Shown here: piece after piece, positions 3,722 through 40,428 of the stretch
Position numbering within the stretch: position 1 is the stretch's first letter
Layout: each line of letters starts with the position of its first letter
Assembly: GCA_031254295.1 (NCBI GenBank)
Contig: JAIRUS010000046.1
Span: forward strand, 2,973-66,972
DNA: 64,000 nt
Source of the DNA: Streptococcaceae bacterium
Lineage (GTDB): Bacteria; Bacillota; Bacilli; Lactobacillales; Streptococcaceae
Reading direction: 5' to 3'
Notes under the pieces: generated by a model
The model's database searches: none
What the model was told of the DNA's origin: nothing
The model's input: the letters and a program-made list of their open reading frames with translations, nothing else
Translations under genes and position numbers: made by a program

Positions 3722-5374
3722 ATGAAATTTATAGAACAATTATATCAGAAATTAGCAGAAGTCTACTCAGGCCAAAAGCTAGAAGAAGCAAGAATAGCCT
3801 TTGAAGAGCTGGTTGAGGACTACTCAAAGCAGACTTTTTCAGAACGTGCACCCTTATCAGAAAAAAATGTTTATTTGATTACTTATGGGGATGCTTTTGT
3901 AGACGGCGATAGAAAAGGCTTATCAGTTCTTAAGGACGTTGTAGATAATAAACTGTCGGATACAGTCACAGATATTCATTTGCTTCCAATGTTTCCTTAT
4001 ACGAGCGATGATGGTTTTTCAGTAAGGGATTATGAGCAAATTAATTCTATCCTTGGAGATTGGAGGGATGTTAAGAGGCTTTCAGATGATTATCGCCTAA
4101 TGTTTGATTTTGTGGCCAACCATATGTCGCAATCAAGTGACTGGTTTCAGAAATTTTTGAATCAAGAGCCAGATTTTTCGGAGGCTTTCATCAAATTTGA
4201 TGAAAAGTTTGATAGCTCAAATGTCACACGCCCGAGGGTTTCTCCACTTTTCCATACTTATAAAAATGGACTGAAGGTTTGGACGACTTTTTCAGAGGAT
4301 CAGGTAGATGTTAATGCACAAGAGGTGAAGATGCTGGTAAGGCTGACTAAGATTCTGCTTGACTATGCAGCCAAGGGAGCAAGCAGCATTAGATTAGACG
4401 CAATTGGCTTCTTATGGAAAGAATCAGGCACGACTTGTATGCATCGGCCGCAAACTCATGCGATCATTCAGCTTTGGCGCTTACTGCTTGAAGAATTTGC
4501 ACCGAATACTCAAATAATAACAGAAACTAATGTGCCACATAAGGACAACGTTGCTTACTTTGGTAACGGAAATAATGAAGCGCAGCAAGTCTATCAATTC
4601 CCACTGCCTCCACTAGTATTACATACTTTTATCACAGGAAATAGCGAAAAGTTATCTGGTTGGGCAAAAGGCATAGAGCATGTGAGCCAAACAGCTAGTT
4701 ACTTTAATTTTTTAGCGAGTCATGATGGAATTGGATTACGTCCGACGGAAGGGATTTTATCAGACGAGGAGCGAGCACAACTTGTCGAACGCGTACTGGA
4801 AAACGGAGGTAAAGTTTCCTATAAAAATAATCCAGATGGCTCAGAATCAGTTTATGAGATGAATATCAATTTTTCCGAGGCGTTGAAAGAGGGAGAAAAT
4901 GATAAGTGGGTAACAGATAAAATGCTCGCTGCACATCATATTCTGCTTTCTGTAATTGGAGTTCCGGCTATTTATTATCACTCAATTTTTGGTTCAAAAA
5001 ATGATTACAAAGGCTTAAAGGAATCTGGGATAAATCGGCGAATAAATCGTGAAAAATTAGATATGCAGCAATTGTTTAACAGCTTAGAAGACGATGTTTA
5101 TCGAAAGGAGATATACCAAGGCATTCAGCGAATGATTAGAGTTCGGCAAAAAGAAATTGCCTTCAATCCTTATGGAAGCCAGAAGATTCTTGACTTGGGG
5201 AGTGGATGCTTTGGCGTGTTGAGAGAATTTAAAGGGCAACAAATTATTTGTGTCACGAATGTGACAAAGGAAAAACAAACATTGGGTGATTATGCGGGCT
5301 ATGATCTCATTTCTGAAAGGAAAGTTCAAGAACTTGGAGTCTATGAAACAGTTTGGATAAAGGAAGTCAGATGA
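3722..5374 (+). CDS. GH13_18 sucrose-phosphorylase-family enzyme, YcjM/glucosylglycerate-phosphorylase-like
   Basis: Motifs LITYGD, HLLPMFPYTSDDGFS, FDFVANH, RLDAIGFLWKESGT, ITETNVPHKDN, NFLASHDGIG, YEMNINF closely follow E. coli YcjM as I recall it. Confidence 0.85.
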   Translation: MKFIEQLYQKLAEVYSGQKLEEARIAFEELVEDYSKQTFSERAPLSEKNVYLITYGDAFVDGDRKGLSVLKDVVDNKLSDTVTDIHLLPMFPYTSDDGFSVRDYEQINSILGDWRDVKRLSDDYRLMFDFVANHMSQSSDWFQKFLNQEPDFSEAFIKFDEKFDSSNVTRPRVSPLFHTYKNGLKVWTTFSEDQVDVNAQEVKMLVRLTKILLDYAAKGASSIRLDAIGFLWKESGTTCMHRPQTHAIIQLWRLLLEEFAPNTQIITETNVPHKDNVAYFGNGNNEAQQVYQFPLPPLVLHTFITGNSEKLSGWAKGIEHVSQTASYFNFLASHDGIGLRPTEGILSDEERAQLVERVLENGGKVSYKNNPDGSESVYEMNINFSEALKEGENDKWVTDKMLAAHHILLSVIGVPAIYYHSIFGSKNDYKGLKESGINRRINREKLDMQQLFNSLEDDVYRKEIYQGIQRMIRVRQKEIAFNPYGSQKILDLGSGCFGVLREFKGQQIICVTNVTKEKQTLGDYAGYDLISERKVQELGVYETVWIKEVR

Positions 5375-36655: not shown

Positions 36656-37186
36656 TTATATAGCGCCGTTGTTACTTTGAGCAATATTTATCATATTTTT
36701 CTCTTCGTGTTCCTGTAACAGAGCGTCGCCTTTTTCGAGGTGCTTGATAAAATCAGTCATTGCTTTTTCGAACTCTTCATAAGTTTTAAGATAATCAGCA
36801 AAATATTGCCCTTTCCATTCACTTTCGATGGTTGCATTCATTTCGGCTATTTTTTGGATTATATTCTCTAATTTTCTTTTCTCATCAAGATAGATTCTAT
36901 TATGATTTTCTGAGACTTGATTATTTAGCAGGTCTTGGAAGCTTAATTCTTCACTGTCTAAGAGACCCATTTGGAAGATATACGTAATGTCATCGGCGTT
37001 AAACAAGTAGAGTTGATCAGCATTTTGATAACCCTCTGGGAAAAGAACTCCAGCATAGTCAAATTCTTTTTGAGTTTCTACCGAAATTTGCTTACGCCCA
37101 ATTATCATCAGTCTCTTTTCACCACCATCTAATAATATGACACTACCGAGAGGTAAAAAGCCTGTTAAATTATTGTCATTATTCAT
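36656..37186 (-). CDS. DUF4176 protein with a C-terminal WXG100-like extension
   Basis: N-terminal LPLGSVILL...MIIGR...FDYAGVLFPEG...FNADDI (DUF4176); C-terminal helix-EWKG-helix. Confidence 0.8.
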   Translation of the reverse strand: MNNDNNLTGFLPLGSVILLDGGEKRLMIIGRKQISVETQKEFDYAGVLFPEGYQNADQLYLFNADDITYIFQMGLLDSEELSFQDLLNNQVSENHNRIYLDEKRKLENIIQKIAEMNATIESEWKGQYFADYLKTYEEFEKAMTDFIKHLEKGDALLQEHEEKNMINIAQSNNGAI

Positions 37187-37221
37187 TTATTTAAGATCCT
37201 TTTTCTTATAGATTTATTCAA

Positions 37222-37569
37222 TCAAGCTATGAATCTCACGGTTAAAGTCCATATCTCTGCTTTTCTTCGTCTGGGGTCAATTTTTTTCGGAGTATCTTGC
37301 TTGTTTTCTATGAGCATATCTTGATATTCTTTACTTTTCATGATCTTTCTTCCACGTTTGATTATAGCGAAGTAGAAAGATATGGCAAGTAAAAAACAAA
37401 ATATCTTGCTATAATTTTCCAGATCATTCCACCATAGTGGTTTCTTAATTACAGGGGATAGTGGAAAAAATGCTTGAATAGATATCTCGACTACGAAAGC
37501 AGTGAATATGCTCACAACAGCAATTATCCACAATTTTCTCTCATATTTATCACTTACTATGTATTTCAT
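37222..37569 (-). CDS. Membrane protein, cassette 2 large gene (C-terminus altered by +1 frameshift)
   Basis: Paralog of 37835-38158 (IKRGRKIM.SKEYQDMLIENKQ). Removing one base of the T7 tract 37281-37287 restores PKKLTPDEEKQRYGL*. Confidence 0.75.
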   Translation of the reverse strand: MKYIVSDKYERKLWIIAVVSIFTAFVVEISIQAFFPLSPVIKKPLWWNDLENYSKIFCFLLAISFYFAIIKRGRKIMKSKEYQDMLIENKQDTPKKIDPRRRKAEIWTLTVRFIA

Positions 37570-37757
37570 TTTATAACTCCTGAAATTCTACCAATAATTG
37601 TGATAAGCATATTTAATAGTCCTATACTAGTTATGAGCATTAAAACTAAATTTCCTATCAAAAACCACATTCGCTTTTTTTCTATTCGTGGTTTATCATT
37701 TTCAAAGTCTTCTGCAATATATAAATGAACATAGTAATTAATTAGCTTATTTATCAC
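37566..37757 (-). CDS. Small membrane protein, cassette 2 small gene
   Basis: Paralog of 38161-38349 (NK.INY.V.LYI..D....PRIE..R..FLIG). Confidence 0.75.
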   Translation of the reverse strand: MINKLINYYVHLYIAEDFENDKPRIEKKRMWFLIGNLVLMLITSIGLLNMLITIIGRISGVIK

Positions 37758-37834
37758 TTTTTCTCCAAATTACTTTATTTTAAAATTGATTCCAATTTCT
37801 TACAGATTTATTCAATTAGCTATGAACTTTAGCA

Positions 37835-38158
37835 TTAAAGTCCATATCTCTTTTTCTCTTCTTCAGGGGTCAATTGCTTAGGTTCATTTTGTTTGTTTTC
37901 TATGAGCATATCTTGATATTCTTTGCTTCTCATGATTTTTCTTCCACGCTTGATGACTGTTCTAATGAAAAGTATTGCTATAATTATCCAAATCCAATTG
38001 ATAATATCTAGATATAATTGGGGCATTTTAGGATTAAGTTTAGCGATATCAATATTATTGGTAATAAAGCTTAGAATAGCTATGGGAATAAAACATAAAA
38101 ACATAATTACAGTGAGCATATTTTCTTGTTTTGAAGTTGTCTGAAAACTGAATTTCAT
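37835..38158 (-). CDS. Membrane protein, cassette 1 large gene (putative immunity)
   Basis: 2 TM plus basic/acidic tail; its RBS lies in the end of the small gene. Confidence 0.75.
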   Translation of the reverse strand: MKFSFQTTSKQENMLTVIMFLCFIPIAILSFITNNIDIAKLNPKMPQLYLDIINWIWIIIAILFIRTVIKRGRKIMRSKEYQDMLIENKQNEPKQLTPEEEKKRYGL

Positions 38159-38160
38159 TA

Positions 38161-38349
38161 CTATTTTCCTCCTACAAATAAATTATAGATGACAATCATA
38201 ATGAGTGAAGTCCAATATGAACCTACTATGCAAACAGCACTCATACTTCCAATCAAGAAAGCTAAACGGCTGCTTTCAATTCTGGGATTTTTTTTACGGG
38301 TATCCTGTCCAATATAGAGATTGACAAAATAATTTATAAATTTATTCAT
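38161..38349 (-). CDS. Small membrane protein, cassette 1 small gene (putative immunity)
   Basis: ATGA overlap with the toxin C-terminal ORF stop; 1 TM. Confidence 0.75.
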   Translation of the reverse strand: MNKFINYFVNLYIGQDTRKKNPRIESSRLAFLIGSMSAVCIVGSYWTSLIMIVIYNLFVGGK

Positions 38350-39795
38350 TTTTTCTTTTTCTCCTCCGATATTTTAAAATTAAATCCGGCGCCTGCACCA
38401 ACAGAAGTTTTTCCTCCTAGTGAAAATTCGCCTTTATTAGGGTTAATGTCTACATGTCCAGTTAAACCAGCAGATAGCACAGAACCTTCGAAGCTTGCAT
38501 TCGCTTTCAAATCAGTAAATGGAATTGTAAATGAAAAAGGTATTTCTAGCTTTGTAGCGGCTATTTCTGCGCCGCCCCCAATATTGAAGTTATTTTTATT
38601 TATATCAGTATAGCCACCTAATTTTCCTGTAACTAAGTTAATATTTGGCCTTGTATTCCATACTTTTGGAGACCATTCCAGCCATGTTCCCGATCCGCCA
38701 ATGCTCGGCCCCATATGGACGTTATCACCCACAGCCTTTGAGCCAAAAGTTTTTCCTTTAGGAGAAATAAGGCTAAAATTTCCATCCATCAGATTTTTTT
38801 TCCGTGACGGCTTTTCCAAATTCAACTTTACCTAATGCGGTATTCCACTGAAAGGCGGAGGCTTCTCCGTATTTTTTCAGTTTTTCTTTATACTCATCAT
38901 GATCGTCTTTTGTACTATATTCGCCATTCAAGAAATTTGATAATCTATTGAGCTTGTCCATTCTTTTTTGATTTTCACTATACTTTTTAAGAGCTAAATA
39001 AAGATCTTCAGCTTTCAAAGGTGAAAGTCCCATAGATTTTGCCATCTCCATAATGGCTTTCAGATCTTTAGGGTCTTTCTTATACTTGATAGTTAATCCT
39101 CCGGCTCCTTCGTCAAATTTCTCATTTCCAAGCTTTTTAGTCCAGCTCATATCGGCATTATTAATGTAGTAATTACCAGAACTGTCAAAACTAACTTGAT
39201 TCAGCGCTATTGCTCCTTGGATAGCCAGTTGAAAGGCTTCTAAACTATCGCTAAAAAGAGAGGAAACTGCAGATACAAACCATTGTAATTTATCAAGTTT
39301 AGTTTTAATTTCGCTAATTTGCGGTTCAAGGATTTGGTCACGCATGTATTCTAATGCTTGATTTTGAGCGATGATAGCCCCAAGCTCTCCAGAGAAAGTT
39401 TCCTGTATAAGATTAAAAAAATTATTATTTCTCTCAAGCTGATCATTGATTTCATCTACTTGCGCATTTTTTAATGTAAGTTGTTGCCTCAAGTTATCCT
39501 CATCTAGCAAATCATAGCCACTGATTTGAGAGTCTGCATAGCTGTAGGAAGAAAGATCGTTTCTAACATCATCAATAGCAGCGTGCACTTTATAAATGGC
39601 TGGAATGATAATCTGCTCAATGAGTCCTTTGCCTGCAGTATACACTGCTCCAGAAAGCAGGCCTGTATTGAGTACGGCTATCAAATGCTTACAACCATTT
39701 GTCAAACGCTCAACAATTTGCGTAGCGATATTTGAGTTATTTGTCAACGCTTGAATAAGTGCTTCAGACTCTGAACTACTATATTTTACTCCCAC
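38346..39795 (-). pseudogene. LXG toxin B split by a frameshift (ORFs 38773-39795 and 38346-38825)
   Basis: LXG N-terminus paralogous to toxin A. The reading frame shifts at the A8 tract (plus-strand T8, 38794-38801) or the adjacent TGGA duplication. Repair gives ~480 aa with a Gly-rich C-terminal domain. Confidence 0.75.
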
Positions 39796-40149
39796 GGCAG
39801 TGCATTCCTTTCTTTATGCAGTTTTTCAATGTCATCATCAGCTGTTTGCCTTATACAAGAATAAGTAAGATTTATTTCTTCGGACTGCTCTGAAATGTAA
39901 TTTCTCATACGTTGATTAAGTTCTTGGTTGAGTTCAAACTCCTCTTGAGCTTTTTGACTTCCCTTTGTAACCTGTTGATAAGAAATTTCGTCATACTGGG
40001 CAGATAGCTGCTGAAATTGACGATTGAAATTTTCTAAAATCACGTTGGTAGTTTTCTTTTTCTTGATATAGCGTATCTATATCATTCTCTTTATGTTGAA
40101 TTTTTAATCCAAGTTCGAGTCGCTCATTCGCATTAATATCTTTTGGCAT
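39786..40149 (-). pseudogene. LXG accessory (Lap-type) gene with a 1-bp insertion
   Basis: MPKDINANERLELGLKIQHKENDIDTLYQEKENYQR, then an extra base at ~40041, then ILENF...LHKERNALPWE. Repaired length is 363 nt, the same as paralog 9436-9798. Confidence 0.8.
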
Positions 40150-40152
40150 TGA

Positions 40153-40428
40153 CTACTCCCAACCTCTAGCATCGGCCTGATCGCGCTGTTCAATATGATA
40201 AGCCAACTCTGGGAATTTATTTGCTTGACCTAAAGTGGCAGAAACTAAATCAGAAACTGCAGTTAGCATTTGATTGGCTAGATTTTTTCCTGTTTCCATT
40301 CCTGATATTCCAGAGCTGTAGTTCAACTCAATATTCTGATTTTGAAAATTAGACGCATCAATTCCTGTTAGCTCGGCGATTGCCTCTTGAGCATCGACGG
40401 TATTTGATTGTATATTCCCTGACGACAT
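40153..40428 (-). CDS. TIGR04197/DUF3130-like small T7SSb accessory protein
   Basis: Paralog of 9161-9433 (AQEAIAELTGIDAS.F.NQ...QANKFPELA). Confidence 0.8.
   Translation of the reverse strand: MSSGNIQSNTVDAQEAIAELTGIDASNFQNQNIELNYSSGISGMETGKNLANQMLTAVSDLVSATLGQANKFPELAYHIEQRDQADARGWE

Follow-up and report, generated by a model that had tools for sequence, protein, structure and literature searches.

Protection by two membrane proteins acting together against an LXG toxin has been described in Staphylococcus aureus ST398, where ExiC and ExiD are both required against the extracellular LXG toxin EsxX and neither of them protects alone (Alcock et al., 2025, PMC12744356). ExiCD are also found as orphan pairs without a toxin, their distribution is restricted to Staphylococcaceae, and EsxX, a glycine-zipper toxin, additionally needs the soluble DUF5085 immunity ExiAB (PMC12744356). 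Here we analyze a stretch of 64,000 nucleotides (nt) of contig JAIRUS010000046.1 (hereafter, the window) from a termite-gut Lactovum-like bacterium of the Streptococcaceae, in which the gene of a putative LXG toxin (toxin B) is followed by two tandem copies of a pair of small genes, S and L, whose products have one and two predicted transmembrane (TM) segments, respectively. As judged from the published description of ExiCD, S-L resembles it in comprising two predicted integral membrane proteins encoded at an LXG toxin locus and in occurring also as toxin-less pairs. ExiC and ExiD are polytopic and encoded by non-adjacent genes (SAPIG0306 and SAPIG0309), whereas S and L, with their one and two TM segments, are translationally coupled neighbours. 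Moreover, unlike the EsxX system, the S-L locus contains no DUF5085 partner and its toxin tip looks beta-type, and, unlike ExiCD, no orphan S-L pair was found in the sampled genomes lacking the toxin.

The LXG module of group B Streptococcus (GBS) and other streptococci comprises two WXG100-like chaperones, the LXG toxin, a TM protein, and DUF4176; the TM protein is the product of a single gene, has two to four TM helices (ID870_4220, 182 amino acids, aa), and its role in immunity has not been demonstrated (PMC9900821, PMC11481500). The S-L locus shares the gene order and operon logic of this module, with a subtype-specific and highly variable TM slot between the toxin and DUF4176, and GBS partial modules keep the TM and DUF4176 genes, as happens here; unlike in GBS, the TM slot consists of two genes that are sometimes repeated. 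Membrane-embedded immunity against membrane-depolarising type VII secretion system (T7SS) toxins that act from outside is represented by TsaI (DUF443) against TspA in S. aureus and by Imm3 against LXG1-CT3 in Streptococcus suis. TsaI and Imm3 are single polytopic DUF443 proteins, whereas S and L match neither DUF443 nor any other Pfam model. In the TelE operon of Streptococcus gallolyticus, which encodes Gallo_0563, Gallo_0564, and TipE, the 244-aa 6-TM protein Gallo_0563 co-purifies with TelE as part of a soluble pre-secretion complex, the C-terminus of the toxin is bound by several partners, and immunity has been proven for TipE, a soluble DUF5085 protein (bioRxiv 10.64898/2026.03.12.711312). 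That operon also encodes a membrane protein directly behind a (pore-forming) LXG toxin, and it differs from the window module in having DUF4176 upstream of the toxin gene. The tip of toxin B appears to be beta-type, in contrast to the helical glycine-zipper toxins TelE, EsxX, and TspA. The module can be placed within a known kind, two-protein membrane immunity with its precedent from 2025, from which it is set apart by two mini-proteins in the TM slot, the lack of a soluble DUF5085 immunity, a tip that looks beta-type, and pairs that can be arrayed.

Results

S-L pairs were found in 11 distinct loci outside the window (L005, L006, L007, L008, L009, L021, L023, L024, L052, L058, and L061; the longer contig L064 has the L021 type of locus), originating from Lactococcus nasutitermitis, Pseudolactococcus plantarum, P. 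piscium, and metagenome contigs. S and L were adjacent in all 11, with a spacing of -4 to +3 nt, and where the flanks are on the contig the gene order was Lap1 (88-92 aa), Lap2 (120-272 aa), LXG toxin (448-487 aa), S (60-74 aa), L (84-133 aa), and DUF4176 (75-106 aa), the latter coming next after S-L wherever the contig reached that far. The toxin ended in the same glycine-rich tip as in the window, with S-L directly behind it, in 10 of the 11 loci; in those with the upstream flank on the contig S-L lay downstream of the tip and in the same orientation, L058 being the exception to both statements. Out of about 400 Streptococcaceae genomes sampled, exactly the same four contained the toxin tip and gave strong matches to L. 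Other LXG modules of these genomes were without S-L, and five other genomes of the window's genus were without the module. The pair was thus found linked to this toxin type elsewhere, a point on which the first-pass annotation of the window had made its proposal of a two-protein membrane immunity module depend. The module was located at different chromosomal places among the genomes, once beside an integrase, and it can therefore be considered a mobile island.

The pattern of divergence also connected S-L with the tip. Mean pairwise identities, calculated over the seven loci having all parts, were 36% for the L core (L apart from its C-terminal tail), 41% for S, and 44% for the toxin tip, rising to 48% for the LXG head, 59% for Lap1, and 67% for DUF4176, so that S and the L core were the fastest-diverging parts of the module. 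In Mantel tests on 10 loci, which are related and whose shared ancestry inflates r and makes the p-values optimistic, S correlated with the L core (r=0.64, p=2e-4) and the tip correlated with the L core (r=0.53, p=4e-4) and with S (r=0.37, p=0.015), correlations of the L core with the LXG head (r=0.14) and with DUF4176 (r=0.20) not being significant. S-L therefore tracked the tip type both in its presence and, within those 10 loci, in its divergence.

The L tail followed a different course. Three tail types were distinguished, independent of the L core, the short and the KYGL tail both occurring in each of three core lineages. DUF4176 identities sorted by tail type (84%) and not by the core group of L (74%): the N-terminal DUF4176 types ..LALGS.. 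(L006, L007, and L052) and ..LPLGT.. (L008, L009, and L024) went with short and KYGL tails, respectively, whatever the tip type. This mismatch between tails and cores, with DUF4176 following the tail, indicates a recombination junction inside L, at the RGRKIM codons, which would separate a variable cassette (toxin tip, S, and L core) from a constant flank (L tail and DUF4176).

A junction at that position would explain the mosaic structure of the two window copies. Over their 5' part of about 420 nt, the two cassettes have just 30-60% DNA identity, and they share a high-identity 3' block of about 180 nt that begins inside L at the RGRK codons and ends about 40 nt past the stop (Table 1). The first-pass annotation had noted that non-coding DNA downstream of both copies is conserved. 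Conservation of the block is real; in copy 2, nevertheless, part of the supposedly non-coding sequence falls within the shifted L2 open reading frame (ORF), and the spacers at the corresponding place in other loci are not alike. We interpret the block as a constant 3' flank of recently shared ancestry, or one recently homogenised, and not as a functional motif or element. Regarding the shift in L2, one extra A in the A-run at 37281-37287 replaces the family end ...LT.EE..(K/R)YGL by 19 unrelated residues. The ancestral-frame stop, after ..RYGL, is at 37242-37244, and the ending in that other frame, ...LTPDEEKQRYGL before the stop, matches the ending ...LTPEEEKKRYGL of L1 and the ending ...KKLTKEEE.KKYGL of relatives elsewhere. 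Since natural short-tail L variants exist, this frameshift is probably tolerable; among the conserved residues of the L tail, only the RGRKIM-like ones are family-wide.

Pairs without a cognate toxin recur among these loci. Two tandem S-L pairs were also present in metagenome contigs L023 and L064, and the extra or orphan copies comprise pair 2 of the window, the second pairs of L023 and L064, and the pair of L058. The closest relative of the window locus is L064, with a tip that shares 64% identity and reads without interruption through the position of the frame change in the window. Its pair 1 is 50% (S) and 36% (L) identical to pair 1 of the window, and its pair 2 is 45% (S) and 42% (L) identical to pair 2. 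The two-pair array thus probably predates the split of the window and L064 lineages. Since L064 holds two pairs in the same positions, we consider pair 2 an old and maintained extra pair and not a recent decaying duplicate; the earlier description of the second copy as an orphan variant holds inasmuch as the pair has no toxin of its own, and it needs amending as to the age and upkeep of the pair. In L023, each pair is similar to one that is found singly, as the cognate pair, in another locus: L023a to the pair of L008 and L023b to that of L009.

Several loci were found in a decayed or rearranged state. In L058 (1402-4589; also L059 and L060) the toxin gene is broken, its LXG head (191 aa) being separate from an Ntox35 tip (256 aa); after this tip come two soluble immunity-like genes (152 and 103 aa), an uncalled 62-aa S (3809-3997), then L, and finally a truncated DUF4176 and a phage-type integrase. 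This arrangement is best read as a toxin-tip replacement that left the old S-L pair behind. In L008 (1945-2936) what is left of the toxin is its tip, an independent ORF of 119 aa that has an ATG of its own and lies right after a Lap2-like gene, and S, L, and DUF4176 are intact. In the 142-aa metagenome protein P0018, about 70 N-terminal residues of the LXG toxin lead straight into the C-terminal half of L; this deletion chimera has lost the toxin body, S, and L's own N-terminus. Together with the arrays, L058-L060, L008, and P0018 show what we take to be the behaviour of displaced immunity genes in polymorphic toxin loci. Weak L matches in genome G288 were rejected as members of the family, for they belong to an unrelated array (L016, contig C12, about 384.7-387.9 kb). 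This array consists of three tandem N-terminally anchored proteins of ~130-140 aa, each then followed by an 87-90-aa fragment ending in ...EEPDGNITLLFQGSKG...DWLDHDF, and it looks like an immunity array with toxin-fragment relics, unrelated to S-L.

All four S and L genes of the window were recovered as the first-pass annotation had delimited them, a 1-TM gene coupled to a 2-TM gene on the minus strand in two copies (Table 1), and the motifs that it quoted, PRIE..R..FLIG and IKRGRKIM.SKEYQDMLIENKQ, were present. The start codon of S1 overlaps the stop of the toxin C-terminal ORF, S1 and L1 are separated by 2 nt, S2 and L2 overlap by 4 nt, and a Shine-Dalgarno sequence lies 5-10 nt upstream of each of the four genes. 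Hydropathy analyses gave S a single TM segment and L two, and, from the positive-inside rule and charge bias, S is predicted to run from an inside N-terminus to an outside C-terminus, and L to have both its ends inside; the toxin would thus be encoded together with two integral membrane proteins. S1 and S2 are 37% identical and L1 and L2 44%. The likeness of the copies exceeds chance by far: L1 retrieved L2 at E=4.6e-9 in a search against 5.8 billion proteins, and in the own genome the family profiles matched both copies at E=1e-26 to 1e-40 and revealed no others. Conserved parts are the N-terminus of S (KLxNxYVxLYIxED..N.KPRIE..R) and, in L, the N-terminus (MKY..DKYE) and the RGRKIM motif after TM2. 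Column identity was 49-53% in the cytoplasm-facing segments of both proteins versus 19-29% in the TM helices and the outer loop.

Family searches with S, L, and the toxin tip against Pfam, NCBIfam, and PHROG gave just sub-threshold noise, hitting a different family with each member; PDB profile searches with S, L, and the tip had no match. The Pfam models DUF443 and DUF5085 matched no gene of the locus and no member of the L family. Word-based homologue searches with single S or L proteins returned only the window's own genes, while the HMMER profile of L found just nine others (60-122 aa) among 1.84 billion representative proteins, and five further L relatives came up when 5.8 billion clusters were searched by profile; these relatives include proteins annotated as hypothetical in L. 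nasutitermitis and P. piscium. The S profile yielded nothing credible over 401 Lactobacillales genomes beyond the own genome, only weak TM noise. A back-translation scan of genome contigs with a narrow toxin alignment returned only two Pseudolactococcus type strains, one of them P. plantarum DSM 20686. A fused S-L form, for which the first-pass annotation had suggested looking, was not found among the 1.84 billion representative proteins or the 5.8 billion clusters, all family members having 57-142 aa. Its absence from these databases fits the predicted location of the S C-terminus outside and the L N-terminus inside. A single-chain S-L read-through was rejected as a model for structure prediction, since it would have no meaning with the predicted topologies. 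We regard S and L as real but rare families.

The relatives of toxin B are intact proteins, whereas in the window the tip is out of frame with the LXG part owing to a change of one base in the length of an A8 tract (about 38794-38801). The LXG Pfam model did not match the window ORF, and it matched the L. nasutitermitis relative at E=0.001, below the Pfam cut-off; the LSGAAY motif and the synteny of an LXG module are present. For the tip, no family was matched in Pfam, NCBIfam, PHROG, or the PDB. Its hydrophobicity has a period of about two residues, with a peak at 170-180 degrees and none at 100. AlphaFold models built from 10 sequences consist of long beta-hairpins, with a predicted local distance difference test (pLDDT) of 61 overall and 70-75 in the C-terminal half (last 70 residues); an earlier run with six sequences had given a pLDDT of 52. 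A Foldseek search with the model had no significant match (best E=0.09), the top non-significant ranks being mostly transmembrane beta-barrels. No Gly-zipper Pfam model matched the tip, which, given its periodicity of ~180 degrees and all-beta models, does not qualify as a helical GxxxGxxxG segment, and the small-xxx-small strings that it contains are a by-product of the period-2 alternation. These features hint that the tip may be a membrane-inserting, beta-type domain. Its identification with the S. suis pairs LXG-T2/Imm2 or LXG1-CT3/Imm3 was rejected: LXG-T2 is described as Gly-zipper_Omp and LXG1-CT3 is accompanied by DUF443 immunity, and neither is matched here.

The features of the locus are listed in Table 1. 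The window gene that closes the module matched DUF4176 at E=1.4e-24 (Pfam). In L064 (4245-4876), DUF4176 (106 aa) and a 94-aa WXG100-like protein are encoded by separate adjacent genes; they form one ORF in the window, and the fusion is therefore recent in the window lineage. A scan for promoters and terminators, which overall performed at chance level, gave no convincing terminator from the toxin gene to the DUF4176 gene. A near-consensus sigma-70-like site, TTGCCA-16-TATAAT (11/12), lies within L2 (37361-37388, minus strand), upstream of the DUF4176 gene; the count of such sites in the region equals that expected by chance. One full-length EssC is encoded in the window's own genome (contig C126), with scores above the family cut-off. 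Seven more EssC fragments were found in this genome (G000) on the short contigs C84, C58, C9, C60, C61, C88, and C130, which may represent several essC variants or modules, or a strain mixture in the assembly.

Table 1. Features of the S-L locus in the window, in order of transcription, and the block shared by the two copies.
Feature	Coordinates	Strand	Description
Lap1-like gene	40153-40428	minus	91 aa; first in transcription order; upstream helper
Lap2-like gene, split into two ORFs	39991-40149 and 39786-40043	minus	Upstream helper; intact 124-aa protein in L064
Toxin LXG-like head and linker ORF	38773-39795	minus	340 aa; relatives are intact proteins of 448-487 aa
Toxin C-terminal (tip) ORF	38346-38825	minus	Glycine-rich; beta-type amphipathic periodicity; unnamed family; out of frame with the LXG part
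S1	38161-38349	minus	62 aa; 1 TM; conserved N-terminal ~30 aa predicted cytoplasmic; TM variable
L1	37835-38158	minus	107 aa; 2 TM; variable TM hairpin; conserved RGRKIM juxtamembrane motif; canonical ...RYGL tail
S2	37566-37757	minus	63 aa; GTG start; GGAG Shine-Dalgarno sequence
L2	37222-37569	minus	115 aa; core intact; distal tail frameshifted
DUF4176 chaperone-family gene fused to WXG100-like hairpin	36656-37186	minus	176-aa ORF; closes the module
High-identity 3' block, copy 1	37786-37963	minus	70-93% nt identity to copy 2; L tail codons and ~40 nt downstream
High-identity 3' block, copy 2	37192-37371	minus	Counterpart of 37786-37963

Discussion

The reading that we favour, with a probability of roughly 55%, is that S and L are co-translated subunits of a membrane-embedded immunity determinant, with three helices in total, specific for a glycine-rich LXG toxin tip of the beta-hairpin type. 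Comparative genomics supports well a presumed role in immunity and the proposed behaviour of the pair as a unit. The toxin would be exported via the type VIIb system and inserted into the cytoplasmic membrane of neighbouring cells, where the matching S-L, through its hypervariable TM helices and the short outer loop of L, would bind or block the inserted toxin within the bilayer, while the conserved cytoplasmic parts of S and L would hold them together or anchor them. Since the extramembrane exposure of S and L is predicted to be tiny, recognition inside the membrane seems the most economical explanation. The toxin tip, S, and the L core would constitute a swappable unit of a polymorphic toxin locus, with its 3' junction inside L at the RGRKIM codons. 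Pair 1 (S1-L1) would be the cognate pair of the now frameshifted toxin B, and pair 2 (S2-L2), an extra pair without its own toxin, would most likely be kept against a related toxin of competitors. As toxin and Lap2 are frameshifted in this assembly, the locus may at present serve only for protection.

A sharper version of this reading, which we put forward as tentative and would not expect to hold in every part, takes S-L to be a minimal heterodimer of three helices, which inside the bilayer would neutralise a type VII toxin that forms beta-hairpin pores, with specificity residing almost entirely in the hypervariable TM helices, new specificities arising by cassette swaps inside L, and the two genes being kept separate by incompatible topologies: with the S C-terminus outside and the L N-terminus inside, S and L would have to remain separate genes.

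Several observations weigh against membrane immunity by the S-L pair. The fold model of the tip is of low-to-moderate confidence, and the action of the toxin on membranes is something that we infer. The homopolymer frameshifts are known from the assembly alone, and the loci compared in the Mantel tests are related. In L058, S-L stands beside DUF4176 with an Ntox35 tip, which could mean that the association is with the module and not with the tip. No strong S or L match occurred in any sampled genome without the toxin family, orphan pairs lying solely inside toxin loci. Finally, the single TM protein in the equivalent position of the GBS module gave no protection in the one assay tried (PMC11481500).

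The strongest competitor, which we judge unlikely but worth keeping in mind, is that immunity is conferred by a single protein, most likely the 2-TM L, S being an accessory, such as a stabiliser of L, a helper in its insertion, or a tether to the pre-secretion complex via the conserved cytoplasmic N-terminus of S. Most characterised T7SS membrane immunity proteins are indeed single (TsaI, Imm3, and Imm2), the tip correlates better with the L core than with S, and the most conserved part of S is cytoplasmic. However, S was missing from no locus, toxin-less extra pairs included, and it is as hypervariable in its TM segment as L and diverges along with L, whereas from a protein that only helps one would expect conservation of the kind seen in DUF4176. 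The first-pass annotation had found a two-gene immunity surprising since immunity is normally encoded by a single gene. This surprise is weakened by ExiCD, both of which are required against EsxX (PMC12744356), and the two-protein membrane immunity module that it proposed is in part borne out, by the linkage to the tip, the co-divergence, and the recurrence of toxin-less pairs.

It is less probable still that S-L is a membrane accessory of the LXG module, taking part in docking, maturation, or hand-over of the toxin/DUF4176 pre-secretion complex and not in immunity. Gallo_0563 provides a precedent for such a protein, S-L always adjoins DUF4176, even in the locus with the Ntox35 tip, and its cytoplasmic motifs are conserved. 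Against this, the L core co-varies with neither DUF4176 nor the LXG head, DUF4176 follows the L tail and not the core, and S-L is absent from the other LXG modules of the same genomes; furthermore, divergent pairs in tandem arrays, and TM segments of extreme variability, are what immunity genes typically show and secretion factors do not.

A still fainter prospect concerns the window/L064 sub-lineage alone, in which both pairs would act jointly against one toxin, as a four-protein complex or by protecting from inside and outside, and pair 2 would not be an orphan. The same order of the two pairs in L064, and the levels of identity shared by tip, pair 1, and pair 2, fit this proposal, but in 8 of the 11 loci found with this toxin family outside the window there is a single pair, and the relatives of both L023 pairs are single and cognate where they occur. 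As for the small ORFs being chance ORFs or annotation artefacts in AT-rich DNA, as their shortness, hydrophobicity, and lack of family matches could suggest, this is already refuted by intact ORFs, conserved motifs, and a fixed order in 11 non-window loci at 27-68% identity, with profile E-values to 1e-40.

ExiCD was not described until 2025, and functional proof for the TM protein of streptococcal LXG modules has so far been elusive. For the question of how membrane-embedded immunity stops membrane-attacking T7SS toxins, the S-L family offers a very small system, with proteins of about 60 and 85-130 residues, a natural allelic series that pairs toxin tips with helices, and tandem arrays suited to cross-protection tests, and it is represented in P. 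plantarum DSM 20686 and L. nasutitermitis, which are cultured and non-pathogenic. Annotation gains two previously unannotated families of small proteins and one toxin domain. For polymorphic toxin loci, the family suggests that the recombination junction of a toxin-immunity cassette can fall inside the immunity gene. If the three-helix heterodimer holds true, S-L would offer a model of intramembrane toxin-immunity recognition simpler than any other known, and, if the tip does form a beta-hairpin pore, toxin B and its relatives would be the first beta-type pore formers among LXG toxins.

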